A stretch of 59,919 nt of DNA, the filler included, from Malassezia furfur (Eukaryota): assembly GCA_052055015.1 (NCBI GenBank). It is 7 parts of 7 records of this genome, joined end to end, with 100 filler letters (N's around TTAATTAATTAA, not from the genome) between each part and the next. Parts side by side here need not be neighbours in the genome. Positions count along the whole stretch, not along the records: positions 43,082 to 51,458 come from JBQJIT010000460.1; 6 more parts are not named here. One strand, 5' to 3'. The notes beneath the pieces were generated by a model, which saw only the letters and a list, made by a program, of their open reading frames with translations, was not told the DNA's origin and searched no databases. Positions 8,659 to 59,919 of the stretch are shown here, piece by piece. The stretch's first letter is position 1; every line of letters starts with the position of its first letter. A program made the position numbers and the translations under genes.

Positions 8659-8758
8659 NNNNNNNNNNNNNNNNNNNNNNNNNNNNNNNNNNNNNNNNNN
8701 NNTTAATTAATTAANNNNNNNNNNNNNNNNNNNNNNNNNNNNNNNNNNNNNNNNNNNN
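8659..8758. other. Artificial contig linker N44-TTAATTAATTAA-N44 (also 17333-17432, 26003-26102, 34497-34596, 42982-43081, 51459-51558)
   Basis: Six identical 100-nt spacers with stops in all frames. Flanking segments measure 8658, 8574, 8570, 8394, 8385, 8377 and 8361 nt, i.e. sorted by size. Confidence 0.97.
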
Positions 8759-17332: not shown

Positions 17333-17432
17333 NNNNNNNNNNNNNNNNNNNNNNNNNNNNNNNNNNNNNNNNNNNNTTAATTAATTAANNNNNNNNNNNN
17401 NNNNNNNNNNNNNNNNNNNNNNNNNNNNNNNN

Positions 17433-18312: not shown

Positions 18313-20152
18313 CTACGGCAAGGTCACGGCAAATTGGCGCACGACGCCGTCTGCGCCGGAGGTCGCGAGCGTCGCGCCGTCGAGCCACGCGACGCCCGTC
18401 GCGCCGCCGGCGTGTGCGTTCTTGAACGCCGCCTGTTTCATAGGACGCGCCACCGACCACACGTAGACGTGCGTGTCGAGCGACGCACTTGCGCAGTGCT
18501 CCCCGGACGCGGACCACGCCAGCGCCGCAATGCGCGCCGAGTGGAACACCCACTGCGTGAGACGCACCGATAGCTGCGCCACATCGTACACCAGAATCTT
18601 GCCGGACGACTCACCCGCGGCCAGCAGCTTGCCGTCCGGCGAAAACGAGAGCGCCGTAATGGGGCTCCGCCCGTTGGTCAGCGTCGCGACTTCGTCCCAG
18701 TTGCGCGTGTACAGGCGCACCTGCGCGTCGGCCGTGCCGATCGCCACGAGCGCATCGCCTGCGCTCGTCGCCGCAATCGCCGTCGGGTCGTGCGCGCCGA
18801 GCTGCGCCGCGGAGCGGTGCGTGACGGTCGTGCCCTCGACGACATCCACCCCGCGCTCGCTCACCACATACTGCGCCGCACCACACATCGCCAAGCCACG
18901 CGGCTGTGCAGTGAGGGCGACGCGCGGCGCATCGCGCGCAATGCGACCGACCGTATCGTCGAGGGCAATCGCATACATCTCGCCGTCGTCGCGCTCGGCG
19001 CCGACGCCCACGACGCTCGGCGCACCGCTCGCTTGCGGCAGCGAGCTTGCCCCACCATCGCGACGGTAGGTATAGACGCGGCCGTCGTACGACCCGACAC
19101 CGACCATGTCCGTCTGCGCAGCGTACACCAGACTCGACACACCCTTGGTCGGGCCCACGAGCGGCGCGCGCAGCTGCAGCGTGCCAGCGGCCACATCGAC
19201 ATCCAGCACGTACAGCACACCCTCAAGACCGATGCTGACCACGGCACCGGGCTGCGCCCAGACCACGCCGACCTGCTGCGCGTCCACCTTGTTGGCCGCC
19301 TGCGTCTTGGCGTCGAACGAGGCGACGAGCTCGGCGTCCGCAGTGCGCCACACCTTGACGAGGCCATCGGCACCTGCCGTGACGACATGCGCACTGTCCG
19401 GTGCAAAACGCACCGCATACACCGTGCCTGTATGGGCGTTGGCGACCGTTTGCTTCGTTTCGCCCGACACGCCGTCGTACAGCAGCAGCTGCCCATCCGA
19501 CCCGACCGAGGCGAACGTCATCCCATCCTTGGCGTACGCCACATCCTGCACGAATCGCGTATGGCCGGACAGCGTCTTGTTAAACTTGAACGGGACCCCG
19601 GTGAAAAAGACGAGGTGCGTATCGTCGCCGGCCGTCACCGCCCGGAAGGGGCGCTGGTGCCGGATCGCGACGGCGTTCATCGGCTTGCTGTGACCGCTGA
19701 TCTCGCCCACACTCGAGCCCGAGTCAAACATGAACGCATGCGCAAACCGCTCGCGGCCTTCGCCGACCACAATGATCCGCTTGCTCTCGCCGTCCCAGGC
19801 AAGGTCGCTCACTTTGCCATTCAGCGCCTGCGTCTGCAGCTTGAGGATGCGCTCGCCCGAGGCCAAATCCCACACACGCACCGAGCCCGAGATGTCGGCA
19901 CTCGCCGCATAGTACCCGCTGGGGCTGATGCGTGCCACGGTTACGGGCTGCGTGTGCTCCGCATACACGAGAGTGGCCCGCGGATCCTGTCGGTCAGTGC
20001 GCGGGCCAACGTACGTCAAGGTCACGGAAGAACACGGTACGGCCCTGGGAGTACACAAGTTTCTTTCCATCGGGACTCGCGTCGAGCTTCGTGCTCGACC
20101 CGCGCGTCACGCTCGGGTTCGCGGCATACACCGCCGTCGGCTGCAACGACAT
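18313..20152 (-). CDS. AIP1: Actin-interacting protein 1 (WDR1), WD40 repeats
   Basis: AANPSVTRG start, ISPSGYYAASADISGSVRVWD, RHQRPFRAVTAGDD..GVPFKF. Intron 19987-20014 (28 nt). Confidence 0.93.
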
Positions 20153-21367: not shown

Positions 21368-21591
21368 TTAGATGTTAAGCTTGGTGCGGCGCCAGTGACG
21401 GCGGTTCTTGTTGTACTGGATCTTCTTGTCGGTCTTCATGCGGAACCAGTTGGGGATGGGGCTAACGGTCAGTCGGGACGCGCGCAACATACCGGTTCTG
21501 GCGCTGAGCCTTCGCCAGCTTAAGCTTCGTGCGGAGAGACTTGTTGGAGGGCTGCAGTGTAAGCACAGTGCCGCGAAGGCATACACACCAT
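21368..21591 (-). CDS. RPL39: 60S ribosomal protein L39 (eL39)
   Basis: ATG-only first exon; introns 21552-21588 and 21462-21492 give [51 protein letters not shown]. Confidence 0.96.
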
Positions 21592-25979: not shown

Positions 25980-26223
25980 AATAACTTGATCGTGTGCGCT
26001 TANNNNNNNNNNNNNNNNNNNNNNNNNNNNNNNNNNNNNNNNNNNNTTAATTAATTAANNNNNNNNNNNNNNNNNNNNNNNNNNNNNNNNNNNNNNNNNN
26101 NNCCCGAGGCGCCCGAGGCGCCTGCGGCACCTGCGGCGCCTGACGCGCCCGAGGCGCCGGCCGCGCCGGCCGCGGACGACACACTCGAGTCCGACATGGA
26201 AAACATTGCACTGTAGGGTATAG

Positions 26224-34496: not shown

Positions 34497-34596
34497 NNNN
34501 NNNNNNNNNNNNNNNNNNNNNNNNNNNNNNNNNNNNNNNNTTAATTAATTAANNNNNNNNNNNNNNNNNNNNNNNNNNNNNNNNNNNNNNNNNNNN

Positions 34597-42981: not shown

Positions 42982-43081
42982 NNNNNNNNNNNNNNNNNNN
43001 NNNNNNNNNNNNNNNNNNNNNNNNNTTAATTAATTAANNNNNNNNNNNNNNNNNNNNNNNNNNNNNNNNNNNNNNNNNNNN

Positions 43082-44075
43082 GGTGGAAGCAGCACAGGCA
43101 CCCGAGCCGCGCCACCACGTCGCGCACCGCAAACTCCTCCATACAAATAATGCACTCGTTCCCAATCAGCACCGAGTCGGGCGCCAGCTGCGACACCACG
43201 TAGCGCGTGCGCGGCACCACATCGGCGGGCGCGCCGTGCTCGAGGCAGTGCATCACATGCGCCTCGCGCGCCTCCTCGGTCGGCAGCGTGCGCAGCGGCC
43301 GGTAGCACACGGGGCACTCGTCGAGCAGGCTTGATGCCAGCGATGCCTCGCCGTCGCCGTCGCGTGCCGCGTCCGCGGGGCGTGGGCGCTGCATGTAGGA
43401 TATCATGTGCGTCAGCAGCGACGTGTCGTGCGCGCCGTCGCGCGGCTCGGGCGCCAAATGATACGTCTCGACACACCAGTCGCACACACGCGATGGGCCC
43501 ACACGCTCCACGTCAAGCATCTCGGGCATCGTCGGGTCAATGATCAGGTCGTCGACACGCAGGTGTGCACGGTGTGTCGTACACGCGTCGCAAAAGATGC
43601 GGCCACACCGCCGGCAGTGGTGCTTGCGCACAAAAAAGGTAAAGGTACGCCCACACTTGCGGCATGCACGCACGTCATGGTCGTCCTCCCACCGCCCGAC
43701 ACTGCGCGCAACGTGCCGCGCCGTGCCGGATGCGCCAGAGGAGCCGCTCGACAAGTCGCTCGCGTACGCATCCGGCGGCGGCGTGCTCCAGCTGTGTACA
43801 CTTGTGTCGTCCTCCGCGGCGTCATCGGCAAGGAACGAGAGCGCCGATACGATTCGTGCACGCAGCGTCGACTCGGACGGCGTGTGCGCCGCACTCGTCG
43901 CGACGTCGTCTGCCGGCGCCGGCGCATGCCGCGCCATCTCGTCCGCAGAACCGGTCCCGGGCGAACCCGTCCCGGGCGACGCGTGCCGATGGGCATCCTC
44001 GTTATCTTCACGCTGAGTATCGCCGCGATCGCCGGTACTCGTCGCATCGCGCGCCGAGCCACCTACCTCGGACAT
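43082..44075 (-). CDS. PIB1: FYVE + RING E3 ligase Pib1-like, copy A, 3' truncated
   Basis: WEDD..C..C..RKHHCRRCGRIFC..RVC; ECIICMEEF..ARLGCLCCFH. Confidence 0.88.
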
Positions 44076-44283
44076 GACGCGGCGGGGTATACGACAGGTA
44101 CCTGACGGCGCTAACGAACCTCCACATAGCCGCCGCAGCCTCGCTGTCCTTTGTGCCTATTCACCGCTGCCCGTATCTCGCTTAGCGCAAAGCATTTTGG
44201 GTGGATCCGCAGCACAATGCGCTGTGCTCCATGTATACAAATCTACGTGTCGCAGACAGGATGAACATCACAGGCATGCATGC

Positions 44284-44936
44284 TTATGCGGACGCAGCAC
44301 GCGCCTCACGCACAGCCTTCTCCGTACCGTGCTTGGCGTAGCGCTGGTTGCGCAGGAACTTGGGGTCCACCTGGAAAGTTAGTAGCCATTCACAACATGA
44401 GGCAGAATAGGAAACGGCGAGTGTGACGACGTGCGAACGGGAGGGTGGGCAAGGGGACAGGGCGGGATGCACGAGCGAGGACAGCAGCCGCGCCAGGGCT
44501 CCGAGAGCAAGGCAGACATAAACATGAGCGTGATCAAGGTGGGACACGAAATCGATATCCGAAGCACCCATCTGGCGCACCGCATGAGCTGCCTTGCACC
44601 CCGTACCGACGTCCGCGCTGTCAGCACAACGTCCCTCGTCGTACATCCGCACAGAGCGCAGACCCACGACGCGCACGCACGATGCACGCATGGTCTTTGC
44701 AGTGTACACATCCTGCCATTCCTGGTCCTGTCCACATCGCCTCCGTCATCGTTCCGTCACATTTCACCTGTTCCTAACCCGCCGCGCTCATACGTACACC
44801 GCGCAGGCTGGGGTAACGGTTCGTCTTGGGCTTCTTGATACCGTTGCGGTGAGCCTTGCTCGACTGGTTGTGGTTGGTGTGGTTCTTAGACTTCGCCCTG
44901 CACGGTCAGCACATCCACTCCTACGCCCACGTACAT
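44284..44936 (-). CDS. RPL29: 60S ribosomal protein L29 (eL29), copy A
   Basis: [50 protein letters not shown]. Introns 44898-44934 (splits AT|G) and 44371-44797 (427 nt). Confidence 0.95.
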
Positions 44937-45061
44937 TGTAAGTCGTTGGGAAAGAAACTGGTACGGCGCCGGAAGAAAACGCATGGGAATTTGCCGCAGT
45001 AGTTCCTCACGTGATATGCCACGCGACAGAGGTACGCCGCGCGACGCGCTCCCTCCACCTG

Positions 45062-45794
45062 ATGGCCATGGAGCGTGGGCCGCACGCCGCGCACGCTCCA
45101 GGCGAATGCGCGCGCCTGGAGCGCATGCGGACGGCGCTGGACAAGTTTTTGACGCTGATTGATGACAAGGCCAAGTACGTGCCGCGCTGACGCAGCGCAA
45201 AGAATTTTGCCGTGGCCTTGCCCAACGTCGACGAGGTCGCGCTAGAAAAGACGCGTCTGCAATTCGTGCAGGACCTCAAATCCGAGATTCGCGTACGTGA
45301 AATGTCTTACGCAGAACGATCTGGATGAGTTGGTGGTGAAGCACGACCTTGGTGCGCGGCTCTCGGAGCTCCAGGAGCTGGTGGACGAGGCCGACGAGCG
45401 CGAACGCAACGCGTACGCACCACATTCCGCCGAGCTCAAGGATGTTTGGCGGCCCGATTTGGATATTTCCACAGCGATCCGCGCACGCATCACTGCGGAT
45501 CAGCAGGCGCGCATGCCTGCGTTGGAGCACGAGTTGGCCGAGGTACGTCGCCCTTTGCTTACGCGTCAGCTGCAGGCCGCCAATGCCGAGTCCGCCGAGC
45601 GCATCACAGCAACCGAACAAGAGGCAGACGAGATGCAGGCGCACGTCGCCGATGCTCTGGCGATGCTCGACAAGGTACGTCGCCCATCGCAAGTCCTGAC
45701 GCAGCTCCGGGGCGCCGTGACGCTGCCCAGCGAAGATGCCAAGGCGCTACAAGCGATGCTCGATGCACTCTTGACCGATTTGGGACCTGTATAA
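45062..45794 (+). CDS. NNF1: Kinetochore MIND subunit Nnf1-like, copy A
   Basis: KNFAVALP, DLGARLSELQELVDEA, WRPDLDISTAIRAR. Introns 45175-45195, 45293-45314, 45543-45569, 45675-45704. Confidence 0.72.
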
Positions 45795-45927
45795 TGTGTA
45801 CTATAGTGGGACGTTACCAACCGAGACGACACCTGCGTGCGCGTGCCGCGTGCGGGGCGGACCGTGTGCGGGGCGGACCGTGTGCGGGGCCGCAGCCCCT
45901 CCACACCCAGGGGCCTCCACGGCGAGC

Positions 45928-46827
45928 ATGTCGCTCGAGCTCGACTGGAGCCTGGTGACGCAGGCGCTGGCCGACCGGCTACGCGACCGCATCAATAGGC
46001 TGTTGAGCACGATCGAGATGCCAAGCTACATGGGCCCTTTGCATCTACACACGCTCGAGTTTGGCGCCGAGGCGCCCGAGCTACAGATCGAGCATGTCGG
46101 GGACGTCTGGCGCGAATTCCGCGAGGCGACCGTGTCCGCGCAGCACAAGGAGCCGTATACAACGACACCGCCGCTCAGTGCATCTGTGGCCGGCATGCAG
46201 GCGCCGCTCGGCCCAATGCGCATGCGCACCTTCCGGCAGTACGACTCGGAGCTGCCCGTGTCGGTGAGCGCGGACGAGGAGCTGAGTGAGCTGGACGACG
46301 ACGAGTCGATGCTGCGCTGGAGCGAGTCGGGTTCCGAGGCCGGCTTCACAGACAGCGGCACGTTTGCAAGCGACATGCCGAGCGCGTCGTCGACCGGCGG
46401 CCTACCGTCGCTCCAAGTGCACGTGCGGGCGCAATGGCTCAGCGGCTCGGTGCGCGCGGGCCTCACCACCACGCTGGAGATCCACCAAGGCGACACGACG
46501 ATCATGAGCTTGCCCGTGAGCGTGCTGCTCACGAGCCTCGAGGTGGTCGGCCAGGTGGTGATCGCACTTGACGGCGAGCAGCGGTGCGTGTATGTGACGC
46601 TGTGTGAGGACGAGCGTGCGCGCGAGGCGAGCGGGGGCCGTGCGCGGCACAAGGCGGCGCGCATCGTGCCGTTCCTCGGGTTCGACAGCCGCATCGGCGA
46701 GCCGACGCGCCACGTCCTCGAGAACGTCGGCAAGGTCGAGCGCTTCGTGGGCGATATTGTGCGCCAGCTGCTCGAGGGCGAGCTCGTGTTCCCCAATTTT
46801 TACACACTGGCCCTGCCAGAGGCCTAA
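45928..46827 (+). CDS. MDM12: ERMES subunit Mdm12, copy A
   Basis: MSLELDW start, FGAEAPELQI, SRIGEPTRHVLENVGKVERF..ELVFPNFYT. Confidence 0.9.
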   Translation: MSLELDWSLVTQALADRLRDRINRLLSTIEMPSYMGPLHLHTLEFGAEAPELQIEHVGDVWREFREATVSAQHKEPYTTTPPLSASVAGMQAPLGPMRMRTFRQYDSELPVSVSADEELSELDDDESMLRWSESGSEAGFTDSGTFASDMPSASSTGGLPSLQVHVRAQWLSGSVRAGLTTTLEIHQGDTTIMSLPVSVLLTSLEVVGQVVIALDGEQRCVYVTLCEDERAREASGGRARHKAARIVPFLGFDSRIGEPTRHVLENVGKVERFVGDIVRQLLEGELVFPNFYTLALPEA

Positions 46828-46836
46828 GGAGACTGT

Positions 46837-47305
46837 CTACCGCGTCCGCGGCGTCCGCGAAAAGAGGCTGCGGCGCTGCGCGTCGCCCTGCGACTGCATG
46901 TATTCGCCGACAGCCCGCACATCGTCGCCGTTGGCGCGCTGCAAATAAGTGCGCGCCGTGCCCTCGTCGAGGTCCGGCAGCGCGTCCATGACGCGCTTGA
47001 GGCTCGCCTCGAACACGGGGTTCGGTTTCGGCGGCGGCGGCAGGTTGAGCGAGCCCGCGAGCAGCGCCGGCGCTGCCGCGCGGGTCTCTTCGCTCATGCG
47101 CGCGCCGAGCCCCGGAATACCCAGCCCAAAGCGCGGCTCGCTCGCCGCCTCCGACTGGCGCGACACGGTGCGCGTCATGCCGCCGCCGTCGCGCGTCGCC
47201 ACCGACGCGGGTGTGCCGAGGTCGTAGTGCGACGCGCGGTGCTGCACCGTGCGCCCCACCAGGGCCGGCGCGGCGCTCGGCGCGGCGCTGCCCGGCGTCG
47301 CGGTC
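46837..47305 (-). pseudogene. 3' fragment of a gene ending in a CUE/UBA-like domain, copy A, 5' lost at the fold
   Basis: FEASLKRVMDALPDLDEGTARTYLQRANGDDVRAVGEYM. The reading frame runs into the inversion centre with no shared start codon. Confidence 0.55.
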
Positions 47306-47735
47306 GCCGGCGCTTGTAGGGCGCACGCTGCAGCACCGCATGTCGCACTACGACCTCGGCACACCCGCTTCGGGGGTGCACGATGGTGGCGGCGGCTTGG
47401 CGCGCACCGTGTCGCGCCAGTCAGAGGCGCCGAGCGAGCCGCGCTTTGGGCTGGGCATCCCGGGGCTGGGCGTGCGCATGAGCGAAGAGACCCGCGCCGC
47501 AGCGCCGGCGCTGCTTGCGGGCTCGCTCAATCTGGCGCCGCCCAAACCAAACCCGGCATTTGAGGCGAGCCTCAAGCGCGTCATGGACGCGCTGCCGGAC
47601 GTCGACGAGGGCACCGCGCGCAGCTACCTGCAGCGCGCCAACGGCGACGACGTAAGGGCCGTCGGCGAGTACATGCAGTCGCAGGGCGACGCACAGCGCC
47701 GCAGCTTCTTTTCGCGCACACCGCGTACACGGTAG
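47306..47735 (+). pseudogene. 3' fragment of the same CUE/UBA-like gene, copy B
   Basis: PALVGRTLQHR..FEASLKRVMDALPDVDEGTARSYLQRANGDD. Its ATG at 47340 is GCG in copy A. Confidence 0.55.
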
Positions 47736-47744
47736 ACAGCCTCC

Positions 47745-48644
47745 CTAGGACTCTGGCAGGGCCAGCGTGTAAAAATTGGGGAACACGAGCTCGGCCTCGA
47801 GCAGCTGGCGCACAAGGTCGCCGGCAAATCGCTCCACCTTGCCGACGTTCTCGAGGACGTGGCGCGTCGGCTCGCCGATGCGGCTATCGAACCCAAGGAA
47901 CGGCACGATGCGCACCGCCTTGTGCCGTGCACGGCCCCCGCTCGCCTCGCGCGCGCGCTCGTCTTCACACAACGTCACATACACACAGCGGTGCTCGCCG
48001 TCCAGCGCAATCACTGCCTGCCCCACCACCTCGAGGCTTGTCAATTGTATACTCACGGGCAGGCTCATGATCGCCGTATCGCCCTGGTGGATCTGCAGCG
48101 TGGTGGTGAGGCCCGCGCGCACCGAGCCGCTGAGCCACTGCACCCGCACGTGCACTTGGAGCGACGGCAGGCCGCTGCCCGAGGTCGTGCTTGGCATGTC
48201 GCTCGCCATCGTGCCGCTGTCCGTAAATCCGGCCTCGGAACCTGACTCGCTCCACCGCAGCATCGACTCTTCGTCGTCCAACTCGCTCAGCTCCTCGTCC
48301 GCGTTCACCGACACGGGCAGCTCCGAGTCGTACTGCCGAAAGGTGCGCATGCGCATCGGGCCAAGCGGCGCCTGCATGCCGGCCACAGAGGGAGTCGGGG
48401 GCGAGGCCGTCGTATACGGCTCGTTGCGCTGCGCCGACGCGGTCGCCTCGCGAAATTCGCGCCAGACGTCTCCGATATGCTCGACCTGCAGCTCGGGCGC
48501 CTCTGTGCCGAACTCGAGCGCGTGCAGGTGCAAAGGGCCCATATAGCTTGGCAGTTCTACCACGCTCAGTAGCTCATTGATACGGTCGCGCAGCCGGTCA
48601 GCCAGCGCCTGGGTCACCAGGCTCCAGTCAAGCTCGAGCGACAT
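47745..48644 (-). CDS. MDM12: ERMES subunit Mdm12, copy B
   Basis: Intact 900-nt ORF, same length and motifs as copy A. Confidence 0.9.
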   Translation of the reverse strand: MSLELDWSLVTQALADRLRDRINELLSVVELPSYMGPLHLHALEFGTEAPELQVEHIGDVWREFREATASAQRNEPYTTASPPTPSVAGMQAPLGPMRMRTFRQYDSELPVSVNADEELSELDDEESMLRWSESGSEAGFTDSGTMASDMPSTTSGSGLPSLQVHVRVQWLSGSVRAGLTTTLQIHQGDTAIMSLPVSIQLTSLEVVGQAVIALDGEHRCVYVTLCEDERAREASGGRARHKAVRIVPFLGFDSRIGEPTRHVLENVGKVERFAGDLVRQLLEAELVFPNFYTLALPES

Positions 48645-48777
48645 GCTCGCCGTGGAGGCCCCTCGGTGTGGAGGCAATGGCCCCGCACGCGGTCCGCCTC
48701 GCACGCGGTCCGCTCCGCACGCGGCGTGTGCGCGCGCATGCGTCGTCTGGCCTGGCATCGCCTCTCTATTGTACACA

Positions 48778-49510
48778 TTATACAGGTCCCATATCGGTCA
48801 AAAGTGCATCGAGCATCGCTTGTAACGCTTTGGCGTCTTCGCTGGGGAGCGACACGGCGCCGCGGAGCTGGATCAGATCCCGCGCGCGTCGACGTACCTT
48901 GTCGAGCATTGCCAGTGCATCGGCGACATGCGCCTGTACCTCGTCCGCCTCTTGCTCTATTGCCGCGATGCGTTCCGCAGACTCGGCATTTGCGGCTTGT
49001 AGCTGATGCGTGAGCGAAATACACCGTACCTCGGCCAACTCGTGCTCCAGCGCAGGCATGCGTGCTTGCTGGTCTGCCGCAATGCGCGCACGGATTGCGG
49101 TGGAAATGTCCAAGTCCGGGCGCCAAACATCCTTGAGCTCGGCGGACTGCGGCGCGTACGCATTCCGCTCACGCTCGTCCGCCTCGTCTACAAGCTCCTG
49201 CAGCTCGGAAAGCCGCGCGCCCAGATCATGCTTAGCCACCAATTCGTTCAAATCGTCCTGCGTGAGGCCATGCACGTACGCGAATTGCGGACTTGAGGTC
49301 CTGCACGAACTGCAGACGCGTCTTTTCCAGCGCGACCTCGTCGACGTTGGGCAAGGCGACGGCGAAATTTTTCGCGCTGCGTCAGCGTGGCACCTACTTG
49401 GCTTTGTCGTCAATGAGTGTCAGAAACTTGTCCAGCGCCGTCCGCATGCGCTCCAGGCGCGCGCACTCGCCTGGAGCGTGCGCGGCGTGCGGCCCACGCT
49501 CCATGGCCAT
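48778..49510 (-). CDS. NNF1: Nnf1-like, copy B
   Basis: Same four introns at the same positions as copy A. Confidence 0.72.
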
Positions 49511-49636
49511 CAGGTGGAGGAGCGCGTCGCGCGCGGCGCATGGAGATCGCGTGGCGCGTCACGTGAGGAACTACTGCGGCAAATTCCCATGCGTTTTCTT
49601 CCGGCGCCGTGCCAGTTTCTCTCCCAACGACTTACA

Positions 49637-50268
49637 ATGTACGTGGGCGAAGGAGTGGGCGTGCTGACCGTGCAGGGCGAAGTCTAAGAACCACACCAAC
49701 CACAACCAGTCGAGGAAGGCTCACCGCAACGGTATCAAGAAGCCCAAGACGAACCGTTACCCCAGCCTGCGCGGTGTACGTATGAGCGCGGTGGGGTAGG
49801 AGCAGGTGGACGTGACGATGCAGTGACGACGGAGGGCAACAGGGCGACAGGAAGTCAGGGTGTGGACGATGGGGAGGCCTTGCGGATGCCACATGTGTAC
49901 ACCACGCATCGGTGCGCTTCGGCGGACGGTGCAGAGCATGCACAAGTTCGCGCGAGGGTCAAGGCCGATAGTGGCTATTTCTCCTATGTGACGAAGGGGA
50001 TGCCCAATGTGCTATTACCGAGCTGCCGCTTTGGTCGTGCGTGTGCTGGGTGTTTTCGCTCTTGGATCTTTTGCGCAGGCTGCACCTTGTCCCATCCTTT
50101 CTGCATCCGCCCTATGCCGCACAGTGTCGCTGTTCCTTGCTTCTACGCCACCCTTTTTGTGAACGGCTACTAACCCTACAGGTGGACCCCAAGTTCCTGC
50201 GCAACCAGCGCTACGCTAAGCACGGTACTGAGAAGGCTGTGCGTGAGGCGCGTGCCGCGTCCGCATAA
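49637..50268 (+). CDS. RPL29: 60S ribosomal protein L29, copy B
   Basis: Introns 49639-49675 and 49776-50181 (406 nt, TACTAAC branch point). Confidence 0.95.
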
Positions 50269-50476
50269 ACATGCTTACCTGTGACGCTCATCCTGTCTGC
50301 GACACGTAGATTTGTATACATGGAGCACAGCGCGATGTGCTGCGGATCCACCCAAAAAACGGTTTGCGCTATACGAGGGAGAAGCGGCGGTGAATAGGTC
50401 TGCAGGGCGAAGGCTGCGGTGCCCATGTGGAGGTTCGTTGGCGCCGTCAGGGGTCGGCCGTTTCCCCCGCCGCGTC

Positions 50477-51458
50477 ATGTCCGAGGAGGGTGGCCCGGCG
50501 CGCGATGCCTCGAGGGGCGTCGATTGCGGCGCTGTGCCGCATGCGGACGACGGGCGTGGTCGTCAGCCTGCGTCGTTCGACGCCGAGCCTGTCGACGAGG
50601 TGGCACGGTATGCGTCGGCGCCGGCCGACGGCGTCGTGGCGAGTGCGGCGCACACGCCGTCCGAGTCGACGCTGCGTGCACGCATCGTATCGGCGCTTTC
50701 GTTTCTTACCGATGATTTTGCGGACGACGGTGCGAGTGTGCGCAGCTGGAGCACGCCGTCGCCCGACGCATACGCAAGCGACGTGTCGAGCAATACCTCT
50801 GGCGCGTCTGGCGCGGCGCGGCACGTCGCGCGCAGTGTCGGGCGGTGGGAGGATGACCATGACGTCCGTGCGTGCCGCAAGTGTGGGCGTACCTTTACCT
50901 TTTTCGTGCGCAAGCATCACTGCCGGCGGTGTGGCTGTATCTTTTGCGACGCGTGTACGACGCACCGTGCGCACCTGCGCGTGGACGACCTGATCATCGA
51001 CCCGACGATGCCCGAGATGCTCGAGGTGGAGCGCGTCGGCCCATCGCGCGTGTGTGACTGGTGTGTCGAGACCTATGGATTGGCGCTTGCGCCTCGCGAC
51101 GCGGCGCACGACACGTCGCTGCTGACGCACATGATGTCCTACGTGCAGCGCCCGCGGACCACAGACGGAGCGCAGGGCGGCGACGCCGAGGCGGCGTCGC
51201 TGGCGTCGAGCCTCTTGGACGAGTGCCCCGTATGCTACCGACCTTTGCGCACGCTGCCGACCGAGGAGGCGCGCGAAGCGCATGTGATGCACTGCCTCGA
51301 GCACGGCGCGCCCGCGGATGTGGTGCCGCGCACACGCTACGTTGTGTCGCAGCTGGCGCCCGACTCGGTGCTGATTGGGAGCGAGTGCATTATTTGTATG
51401 GAAGAGTTTGCGGTGCGCGACGTGGTGGCGCGGCTCGGGTGCCTGTGCTGCTTCCACC
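50477..51458 (+). CDS. PIB1: Pib1-like FYVE-RING, copy B, 3' truncated
   Basis: Same motifs as copy A and ends at the same base. Confidence 0.88.
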
Positions 51459-51558
51459 NNNNNNNNNNNNNNNNNNNNNNNNNNNNNNNNNNNNNNNNNN
51501 NNTTAATTAATTAANNNNNNNNNNNNNNNNNNNNNNNNNNNNNNNNNNNNNNNNNNNN

Positions 51559-55963: not shown

Positions 55964-56839
55964 TTAGGCGCCCTCAGCGTGCTTGGACGTCGCCCCGCGG
56001 CGGCGCACGCGGCCAGCCGTCTTGGTCGCCGCCTGCCGCGTCGCCTCTTCGGTCTGCAGCGCGTTCTCCGACAGCCAGCGCAGCGCATGCGCTCCTGTAG
56101 CAGCGACGTACGGCACACCCGTGTGCAGCATGTGTCCGACATGGTCCCACGCGCCTGGGTCGGCCGTGGCGCTGGGCTCGGCGGCCTCCTCGCCCTCGGC
56201 CGGCTCAGGGACGCGCGGCAGCGGACGTGCGGGGCGCTCGTCCGGCTGGTGCACCTGCGTGAGTCGGAAGAACGTACGCCCTTCGTTGCCCAGGACCCGG
56301 CCTCGCCACGCACAATGTTGTAGACGACGCCCAGCGTCGCGCTGGTGATGGCCAGTGCCCGCTCCGTCGCGCGGTCGACGAAGTTGTCAATGTCGTCCTG
56401 ATGCGACGCGAGGAAGGGCGCGAGGTACTTGGTATACAGCAGCGTGGCGCCCTGACGTCAGTGTGTGCGCCTACCTTGGTTTGCGGCAGGACGAGCCAGA
56501 GGACAAACACAAGCTTGGCGTGTTGATAGCAGGGTATCCTGCGTGGTTAAGCTACGCGACGTACCAGCGCCAGGACCACTCGGCCCACGCCTCGGCAACA
56601 CGCACCACGGCCATCACGGCCCAGTACATGCCGAGGGTCTCGAGCTCCGCGAGTTCCGTCGGGCGGTCGGCCGCACTGGCGTCCTGTTCCTGTTTCTGCT
56701 TCGCGGCTCCGTACCAGCTGTACGCATTCACCGTCGACCCGTTCCGCTGGACGGCGGTGAGTACCTTGTATGTCGCGTACAGTGGGTACAGGTATGCAAT
56801 ACACAGCGTCGCAAGCGACAAGGTCAGGGACAGCGGCAT
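55964..56839 (-). CDS. REEP/Yop1/HVA22 family protein
   Basis: AYLYPLYATYK, MYWAV..AEW, WLVLPQTKG. Introns 56539-56564, 56452-56474, 56255-56277. Confidence 0.82.
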
Positions 56840-59814: not shown

Positions 59815-59919
59815 ATGGCGTACGTATCCCGTGTTCTATGAAGTGTGCATACTAACACCGTGCACAGTGATTCCGCCGTTCTCGGTTTCCCTCGCATTGG
59901 TCCTCAGCGTGAGGTGAAG
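59815..59919 (+). CDS. MET6: 5' end of cobalamin-independent methionine synthase
   Basis: Splicing 59820-59867 (GTACGT..TACTAAC..CAG) gives MADSAVLGFPRIGPQREVK. Confidence 0.88.

Follow-up and report, generated by a model that had tools for sequence, protein, structure and literature searches.

Results

Gene content and RPL29 gene models

The DNA stretch under study (59,919 nt; hereafter, the window) is composed of seven small contigs of 8.4–8.7 kb each, with N44-TTAATTAATTAA-N44 between parts. The sixth part (positions 43082–51458, 8.4 kb) is a whole-contig palindrome, on which RPL29, the gene coding for ribosomal protein eL29, is present twice. The palindrome arms are 85–87% identical across their full length and meet at about position 47288. 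On each arm there are a FYVE/RING-type gene truncated at the contig end, RPL29, a small gene for a coiled-coil protein, Mdm12 and, at the centre, an ORF of 175 amino acids. The closest named relative of the Mdm12 product is from Malassezia obtusa (68% identity). The 900-nt Mdm12 coding sequences of both arms align without gaps, and identical nucleotides are found at 274/300, 286/300 and 233/300 of codon positions 1, 2 and 3, respectively. Given this gap-free alignment and the pattern of identity over codon positions, the arm-to-arm divergence is biological and not due to read errors.

The exons of the two RPL29 copies, A and B, are 97–99% identical, and exon 2 matches 513 eL29 proteins of PF01779 (Ribosomal_L29e) at E ≤ 0.001. 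In copy B (plus strand), a 37-nt intron 1 (49639–49675, branch A at intron position 29) splits the start codon as AT|G. It is followed by exon 2 (49676–49775; the G of ATG plus 33 codons), a 406-nt intron 2 (49776–50181) and exon 3 (50182–50268; 28 codons plus TAA). In copy A (minus strand), intron 1 (44898–44934) is also 37 nt long, exons 2 (44798–44897) and 3 (44284–44370) mirror those of copy B, and intron 2 (44371–44797) has a length of 427 nt. Both long introns start with GUACGUAU and contain a perfect UACUAAC, whose branch A is located 8 nt ahead of the AG. Copy B intron 2 thus has the form GUACGUAU...UACUAAC-N7-AG, with a GUACGU 5′ end, the branch-point consensus at 50168–50174 and the branch A at 50173, located 8 nt upstream of the 3′ splice site. 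The UACUAAC of copy A is at 44378–44384 (intron positions 414–420).

A loose motif scan of the window returned 65 candidate introns, most of which are chance matches; those that restore long reading frames were counted as supported. The supported introns other than the two long ones are all short (26–48 nt), with the branch A at intron positions 18–36. They include a 28-nt intron in a WD40 gene, a 31-nt intron in RPL39 (where the Pfam match begins right at the junction, with profile position 14), a 26-nt intron in an HVA22-family gene (where the Pfam match likewise begins at the junction), a 48-nt intron in a gene that we take to code for methionine synthase, and the two 37-nt first introns of RPL29. 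The excerpts of the Malassezia literature searched contained no intron length distribution for the genus. They do record that minimum intron lengths of 15–20 nt were used in the re-annotation of M. restricta (PMC6473144) and that M. sympodialis is treated as intron-poor (PMC8476143).

Predicted hairpin of intron 2

It had been predicted from the sequence that RPL29 intron 2 is zipped end to end by an RNA stem. Such a stem is indeed predicted for both copies, in the minimum free energy (MFE) structure as well as in the ensemble. In copy B, a purine-rich 5′ arm (49790–49837, intron positions 15–62) and a pyrimidine-rich 3′ arm (50109–50152, intron positions 334–377) form 40 pairs, so that the intron is modelled as one long imperfect hairpin. 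Its outermost helix, present in the MFE structure, joins 49790–49806 to 50136–50152 at 16 of 17 positions, the remaining one being a G.G opposition. In copy A, the corresponding arms lie at 44727–44783 (intron positions 15–71) and 44401–44461 (intron positions 337–397). Here, 44783–44755 pairs with 44428–44401 (intron positions 15–43 and 370–397), and two inner helices, GAACG/CGUUC (44–48/359–363) and GGACAGG/CCUGUCC (65–71/337–343), are found further inside; all of these are part of the MFE structure. The third pair of the stem is C-G in copy A and U-A in copy B, and the fourth is G-U and G-C, respectively. Purines make up 0.72 of the 5′ arm and 0.29–0.31 of the 3′ arm (0.31 in copy B), in agreement with the skew that had been noticed originally. 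When the splice signals were held single-stranded, 42 (copy A) and 45 (copy B) arm-arm pairs formed with mean pair probabilities of 0.72 and 0.86. The arms are thus complementary and the hairpin is thermodynamically plausible.

In both copies, the stem begins 14 nt past the donor, at intron position 15, and in copy B it ends 15 nt ahead of UACUAAC. If the hairpin forms, the path from the 5′ splice site to the branch A via the outermost pair would amount to 14 + 20 = 34 nt in copy B and 14 + 21 = 35 nt in copy A. This is the top of the range of the ordinary introns of the window and would fit a restored short-intron geometry. A helix near the 5′ splice site (6–10/398–402) appears in the MFE structure of copy A and is absent in copy B. 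No alternative fold conserved between the two copies was found.

Contribution of nucleotide composition

Among 4367 background segments of 406 nt taken from the window, not one reaches the difference in purine content between the 5′ and 3′ arms (0.42–0.43). One has to ask, therefore, how much of the predicted stem follows from composition alone. Dinucleotide shuffling of the whole intron, which had been proposed as a check together with the original prediction, left the native MFE ahead of the controls and barely so, with z of −1.68 for copy B (6/100 shuffles as good) and −2.72 for copy A (0/100); a second run gave z values of −1.4 and −2.0. The distance through the structure from the 5′ splice site to the branch point turned out to be uninformative as a statistic because it was equally short in 67/100 (copy A) and 90/100 (copy B) shuffles. 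Any GC-rich RNA of 400 nt brings its own ends together.

It is the topology of the native fold, i.e., end-to-end pairing, and not its total energy, that sets intron 2 apart. There are 50 end-to-end pairs in copy A and 57 in copy B vs. 12 and 8 in global shuffles, where the native count is reached in 2/100 and 0/100 cases. Shuffles in 50-nt blocks that keep the skew zip nearly as well as the native introns (42 pairs for copy A and 43 for copy B; 31/100 and 6/100 reach the native count), and the zipping is therefore mostly encoded in composition. The result speaks for what we regard as the main rival to a selected structure, namely that the purine/G-rich 5′ and pyrimidine-rich 3′ stretches exist for other reasons (G-rich intronic enhancers, a long polypyrimidine tract or mutational drift could be among them) and that the hairpin is incidental. 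We know of no other signal that needs a purine block of 100–150 nt, which counts against this view.

The energy of the arm-arm duplex is −54.5 (copy A) and −60.5 (copy B) kcal/mol compared to about −38.6 kcal/mol in global shuffles (1/300 and 0/300 reach the native value). Shuffling each arm separately yields −46.3 and −49.3 kcal/mol, with 13/300 (copy A) and 4/300 (copy B) shuffles reaching the native energy; in a separate run, 15/500 and 14/500 did, the native arms being about 2 standard deviations better. Ranked among random segments of the window, the native arm energy is in the top 12% for copy A (70/600) and in the top 4% for copy B (26/600). By this measure, copy A is unremarkable, as would be expected of an incidental hairpin, and copy B stands out modestly.

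Comparison of the two copies

According to the original prediction, the stem covaries between the two copies. Taken literally, this holds for two pairs, U-A/C-G and G-C/A-U, within the 20 outermost alignment columns of the stem. However, two compensated pairs are no significant excess under a null model of substitution placement (P = 0.12; 121/500 shuffles reach it), and the covariation, real but thin, is therefore weak evidence. Pair maintenance in the same columns is more telling: despite 11 changed columns, 17/20 standard pairs are present in each copy, with a mean of 12.9 kept pairs under the substitution-placement null (P = 0.002). Such preservation of pairs by substitutions in the outer helix is not what a mere by-product of composition predicts. 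The four one-sided changes in the outer stem are all C/U changes of the 3′ arm that face an unchanged G, and are neutral at the RNA level only. Five outer-stem pairs are formed in one copy only.

The outer stem also has a preferred register, as 87% of cells are paired vs. 44–59% when the partner is slid by 1–3 columns. That the slid registers still pair to this extent is in line with a by-product of composition, and so is the behaviour of the rod further inside, where in-register conservation of pairs between the copies is not significant (P = 0.13 and 0.19). Swapping arms between the copies gave inconsistent results as a sign of coevolution: the energies of the B5′-A3′ and A5′-B3′ combinations are −67.0 and −51.1 kcal/mol vs. 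−57.9 and −62.1 kcal/mol for the native ones.

Within the duplicated region, divergence is greatest in the interior of intron 2, with 53% identity between the copies and 55 gap columns; for comparison, identity is 77% (113/146) at four-fold sites of Mdm12 and 83–91% in flanking non-coding DNA. The alignable stretches are limited to positions 1–151 (67% identity) and ca. 283–343 (69%). An inversion of the interior between copies can be discarded, since minus-strand BLAST matches of copy B to copy A have E ≥ 0.49 and the plus strand aligns over positions 1–151.

RPL29 intron 2 resembles snoRNA-hosting ribosomal-protein introns in being long and structured, and a snoRNA scan of the loop had been suggested. 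It returned no Rfam family in 44371–44797 or 49776–50181 at E ≤ 10. In addition, snoRNA intervals in yeast introns are 72–84% conserved according to the available text of PMC12350175, whereas the RPL29 intron interior is the least conserved segment, so that a role as a snoRNA host was rejected. More generally, the interior divergence together with the lack of Rfam matches argues against a sequence-specific element inside intron 2, as far as sequence comparison goes. ORFs are present on both strands of the intron; a conserved reading frame is incompatible with 53% identity and 55 gap columns, and a coding or antisense gene was rejected on this basis, which included no family search. The lone Rfam match in the contig, at 44047–44112, is outside the intron and reaches 18.8 bits, the gathering score being 50.

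Orthologous introns in other lineages

Scanning metagenome contigs with a Malassezia eL29 protein revealed 67 loci. Nine of them share the gene order of the window (Mdm12, coiled-coil gene, RPL29, FYVE gene), and locus L059 matches the FYVE gene only. Together with L059, the syntenic loci represent three Malassezia-like lineages, all with a split start codon and with intron 2 at the same codon; an intron 1 that splits AT|G was seen also in loci L028, L042 and L046. A pattern scan of genome contigs for further orthologues produced 219 matches, none of which was confirmed.

An end-to-end stem is predicted for intron 2 in each of these three lineages, with mean pair probabilities of 0.74–0.89. 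In the lineage with a 344-nt intron (L046/L047), the arms have z of −4.05 relative to arm-wise shuffles (0/300 reach the native value), and 1/580 segments of the own-locus background reach it. In the lineage with a 134-nt intron (L028, L029 and L032, the latter identical to L057; L059 is partial), the arm-wise z values range from −2.3 to −3.1 (1–5/300), and the background counts are 15/812 and 11/760. The 77-nt intron of the third lineage (L042–L044) has an arm-wise z of −2.6 (4/300), and 0/847 segments of its own-locus background reach the native value. BLAST comparisons between lineages detected no similarity of intron 2 past ca. 8–27 nt at the 5′ splice site, with the exception of one weak internal match, 27 nt long, that links the 77-nt intron to copy A (E = 0.011).

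The stem is thus present in four lineages, the window included. With the worse of the two window copies taken to represent the window, Fisher combination over the four lineages gives P = 1.2e-5 relative to background and P = 4.8e-5 relative to arm-wise shuffles. The advantage of the native arms over arm-wise shuffles in each of the four Malassezia-like lineages (combined P of about 2e-5 to 5e-5) goes against an incidental hairpin, and so does the 134-nt lineage, in which there is little skew (purine fractions of 0.52–0.56 vs. 0.37–0.39) but a near-perfect stem of 12–13 bp. We consider the syntenic orthologues the best support for a predicted zipped intron 2.

The picture is different in outgroups. 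Introns at the same position in four non-syntenic outgroup lineages (L037, L055, L062 and L065/L066) have arm-wise z values of −1.60, +0.96, −1.19 and +1.4/+1.5 and do not rise above composition. L055 has the same skew as the window introns (purine fractions of 0.71/0.28) and folds end to end, yet does not beat arm-wise shuffles, an observation in favour of a by-product of composition. Weighing these observations, and those on the window copies, we find it unlikely that composition alone accounts for the stem.

Among the three variants of the 134-nt lineage, the 8-bp stem core does not vary, and the sole change in the outer stem is A-U to G-U. None of 41 pairs has a compensatory change, and seven pairs of the inner helices are broken in one variant.

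Strand asymmetry

As the intron amounts in essence to a single long inverted repeat, one can imagine that it is a relic at the DNA level, either left behind by the insertion of an inverted repeat such as a MITE or maintained as a quasi-palindrome by template switching, with no function in RNA. The fast turnover of the interior, compared to the 77% identity at four-fold sites, and the variation of intron length from 77 to 427 nt across lineages would fit such an origin. As DNA inverted repeats, however, the arms are poor: the best match in BLAST of the intron against its own reverse complement is 65% identical over 63 nt in copy A, and there is none at E < 9 in copy B. The three long introns fold better in the sense than in the antisense orientation (−179/−146, −166/−123 and −116/−95 kcal/mol, a difference of 21–43 kcal/mol), and contain 18–26 G-U pairs in the sense strand vs. 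7–8 in the antisense strand. Both the G-U pairs and the worse antisense folds count against a DNA-level relic. The asymmetry is partly compositional, since the sense strands of the long introns are G+U-rich (0.56–0.57); in the 134-nt lineage, it is the antisense strand that folds better. A dispersed repeat or MITE was rejected because no other copy of the intron sequence exists within the 59.9-kb window, and the stems of different lineages have no sequence in common. We therefore regard a DNA-level relic as highly improbable.

Discussion

The prototype zipper stem is that of the S. cerevisiae RPS17B intron, where disruption of the stem reportedly lowers splicing and compensatory changes restore it. 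The occurrence of zipper stems in yeast ribosomal-protein introns, on which the original prediction drew, is established for S. cerevisiae: the available text of PMC12350175 reports them in 32 of 88 probed introns. According to the same text, they are weakly conserved in sequence (mostly 20–30%) and hard to back by covariation, their total linker is 42–85 nt, with the 42-nt minimum modelled on the S. cerevisiae A complex, and their definition includes a DMS-guided helix confidence of at least 70%.

The predicted RPL29 stem shares several features with these structures. It would join the region proximal to the 5′ splice site with the region just upstream of the branch point of a long ribosomal-protein intron, and, as with the S. 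cerevisiae stems described in the accessible part of PMC12350175, the motif recurs in orthologues with poorly conserved sequence, the RPL29 lineages having no similarity to each other. In its length, the stem agrees with the zipper definition: in copy B, 15–31/361–377 comprises 16 pairs plus one G.G and the modelled stem continues to 62/334, and in copy A, it covers 15–43/370–397. The predicted position of the first pair, intron position 15 in both copies, also agrees. The spacing on the other side is borderline and depends on the reference point chosen, as there are 20 nt (copy B) or 21 nt (copy A) from the stem end to the branch A and 15–16 nt to the start of UACUAAC. The total linker calculated from the outermost pairs, 34 nt for copy B and 35 nt for copy A, is under the 42-nt minimum, which counts against a zipper; this limit stems from an S. 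cerevisiae model and may not apply to a genus that splices 26-nt introns and probably tolerates shorter spacing. Sub-stems with linkers inside the range of 42–85 nt can also be found: 21–31/361–371 in copy B (11 bp; 20 + 26 = 46 nt) and 22–27/385–390 in copy A (6 bp; 21 + 28 = 49 nt).

There are also differences. Unlike S. cerevisiae zippers, RPL29 intron 2 is nearly all one rod of 40–93 pairs, with one purine and one pyrimidine arm. The Malassezia introns are 26–48 nt long, whereas the intron lengths of S. cerevisiae are bimodal, with a short class and one of 400–500 nt, in the text available from PMC12350175. The S. cerevisiae zippers were probed by DMS, and the RPL29 stem is known from in silico pair probabilities (0.72–0.89). 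The literature searched contained neither a link between RPL29 and zipper stems nor a description of intron structure in Malassezia.

We propose, as a reading that we hold to be somewhat more probable than its competitors taken together, that RPL29 intron 2 is a selected zipper-type hairpin that restores short-intron geometry. The purine-rich 5′ third of the intron would pair, G-U pairs included, with the pyrimidine-rich 3′ third to form a long imperfect hairpin that starts 14 nt past the 5′ splice site and ends 20–21 nt ahead of the branch adenosine. Some 330–360 nt would be looped out in this way, and through the stem the long intron would acquire short-intron geometry. Since the other introns of the window are only 26–48 nt long, a zipper that restores shortness appears to be the best reading. 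Selection would act mainly on the complementarity of the arms, that is, on their composition and on the better-conserved outer helix, and not on a fixed set of base pairs. Formation of the stem in vivo, and a dependence of splicing on it, are inferred.

It had also been suggested that the structure may be a regulatory switch. In this case, the stem would be a sensor or gate that serves autoregulation by excess eL29, or the stability of the pre-mRNA or lariat, and the approach of the splice sites would be secondary. The stem persists in the 77-nt orthologue, where distance should matter less, and the unconstrained MFE structures of copy A and of the 134-nt and 344-nt lineages contain pairs between 5′ splice-site nucleotides and a region close to the branch point; both observations would suit a regulatory structure. 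As precedents, the RPL7B, RPL18B, RPL28 and RPS22B introns of yeast are reported to be autoregulated, some of them via intron structures, in the available texts of 10.1101/2025.03.14.643126 and PMC13232506. RPL7B is the closest parallel, being a ribosomal-protein intron whose zipper stem acts as a splicing enhancer (10.1101/2025.03.14.643126). It is reported to have a conserved alternative structure and a branch point that departs from the consensus, whereas UACUAAC is perfect in the RPL29 introns and we could find no alternative fold conserved between them. We found nothing in support of a switch in the RPL29 introns themselves: there is no conserved sequence motif, no mutually exclusive alternative fold was found, the only helix near the 5′ splice site, that of copy A, is absent in copy B, and conservation within the duplicated region is lowest in the intron interior. 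The literature searched does not connect RPL29 with a zipper stem and its intron. Like a DNA-level relic, then, a regulatory structure is less likely than an incidental product of composition, and we consider it quite improbable.

A more speculative extension of the zipper hypothesis, to which we assign a low probability, is a genus-wide "growing hairpin." The end-to-end stem would be the functional core, possibly as an eL29 sensor or a docking helix for U1 snRNP, and the intron would have expanded from ca. 77 to ca. 430 nt by lengthening of both arms. Its interior would turn over faster than four-fold sites while G-U-tolerant complementarity between purines and pyrimidines was kept. If this were true, the lineages would provide a natural length series in which the dependence of a short-intron spliceosome on intron structure could be measured.

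Zipper stems as such are already known, and the evidence that they matter for splicing comes so far mostly from budding yeast. The finding has no direct bearing on medicine or applications. What makes it most interesting is the natural series of orthologous RPL29 introns, of 77, 134, 344, 406 and 427 nt, in a basidiomycete genus whose ordinary introns are 26–48 nt long. If the zipper-type hairpin is confirmed, this series would allow a clean test of whether intron structure can substitute for intron shortness. It would likewise allow one to test whether selection acts on the composition and complementarity of the arms rather than on fixed base pairs, which would account for the usual failure of covariation tests on stems of this type.

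A Palindromic Contig Carries Both RPL29 Copies

The window is assembled from seven separate small contigs (8361-8658 bp, ordered from large to small), with spacers of the form N44-TTAATTAATTAA-N44 at positions 8659-8758, 17333-17432, 26003-26102, 34497-34596, 42982-43081 and 51459-51558. Adjoining pieces are not contiguous in the genome.

The contig at 43082-51458, which carries RPL29 copy A on the minus strand and copy B on the plus strand, is a palindrome in its entirety: its centre lies at approximately 47288, and the arms are symmetrical out to both contig ends, with an arm-to-arm identity of 85-88%. The divergence between the arms is evolutionary: the coding sequence is free of gaps and the exons are conserved. 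One possible origin is an ancient inverted duplication in head-to-head orientation; alternatively, the genome may be hybrid or heterozygous, and the assembler may have fused two of its homeologues or alleles head to head. The two versions of Mdm12, a gene neighbouring RPL29, were both found on separate short contigs of other assemblies (P0002, 100%; P0003, 88%). At the palindrome centre (47211-47364), two mirrored ORFs of 174 and 175 amino acids lie on opposite strands and, if translation is taken to begin at their GTG codons, overlap. An ATG is present in copy B at approximately 47340, where copy A encodes alanine.

Rapid Divergence of the Intron 2 Interior

Within the duplicated region, divergence is fastest in the interior of RPL29 intron 2 (49826-50145 in copy B versus 44407-44747 in copy A), where the two copies share 53% identity with 55 gap columns. 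This value is lower than that of flanking non-coding DNA (83-91%) and also lower than the 77% at four-fold degenerate sites of Mdm12, which may be a poor neutral yardstick given their strong GC3 bias.

Short Introns and the Split RPL29 Start Codon

The RPL29 start codon is interrupted (AT|G) by an intron 1 of 31-38 nt, both in the window (49637-49676 and 44897-44936) and in all three related syntenic lineages known from metagenome loci (L028, L042 and L046, near 1462-1500). Very short introns are also present elsewhere in the window. Three on the minus strand, with Pfam matches on the flanking exons, belong to RPL39 (31 nt, 21462-21492), an HVA22/TB2-DP1 family gene (26 nt, 56539-56564) and a WD40 gene (28 nt, 19987-20014). 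A 48-nt intron on the plus strand (59820-59867) directly follows the ATG of a putative methionine synthase gene.

A Possible Donor-Site Helix and a Predicted Outgroup Hairpin

The end-to-end zipper of intron 2 may reach the 5′ splice site in copy A, where intron positions 6-10 could pair with 398-402 (44788-44792 with 44396-44400). The two strands of this predicted helix would be UAUGA, adjoining the splice site, and UCAUG, which lies shortly before the branch region, and the helix would lengthen the zipper onto the donor. It is possible in copy A only; the partner of UAUGA is absent from copy B. In the lineage with the 134-nt intron, each of the three variants shows pairing between intron positions 5-10 and 111-116 in the consensus fold.

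A scan of metagenome contigs with a Malassezia eL29 protein retrieved an outgroup RPL29, non-syntenic and GC-rich, at L055 and also at L056 and L058. Its 107-nt intron (L055:1603-1709) occupies the same codon as intron 2, and it shares the layout of the window intron, purine-rich at the 5′ side and pyrimidine-rich at the 3′ side. The predicted minimum free energy structure is an end-to-end hairpin (-41 kcal/mol), which was not better than arm-wise shuffles (z +0.96). A skew-driven hairpin may occur more widely than in Malassezia.
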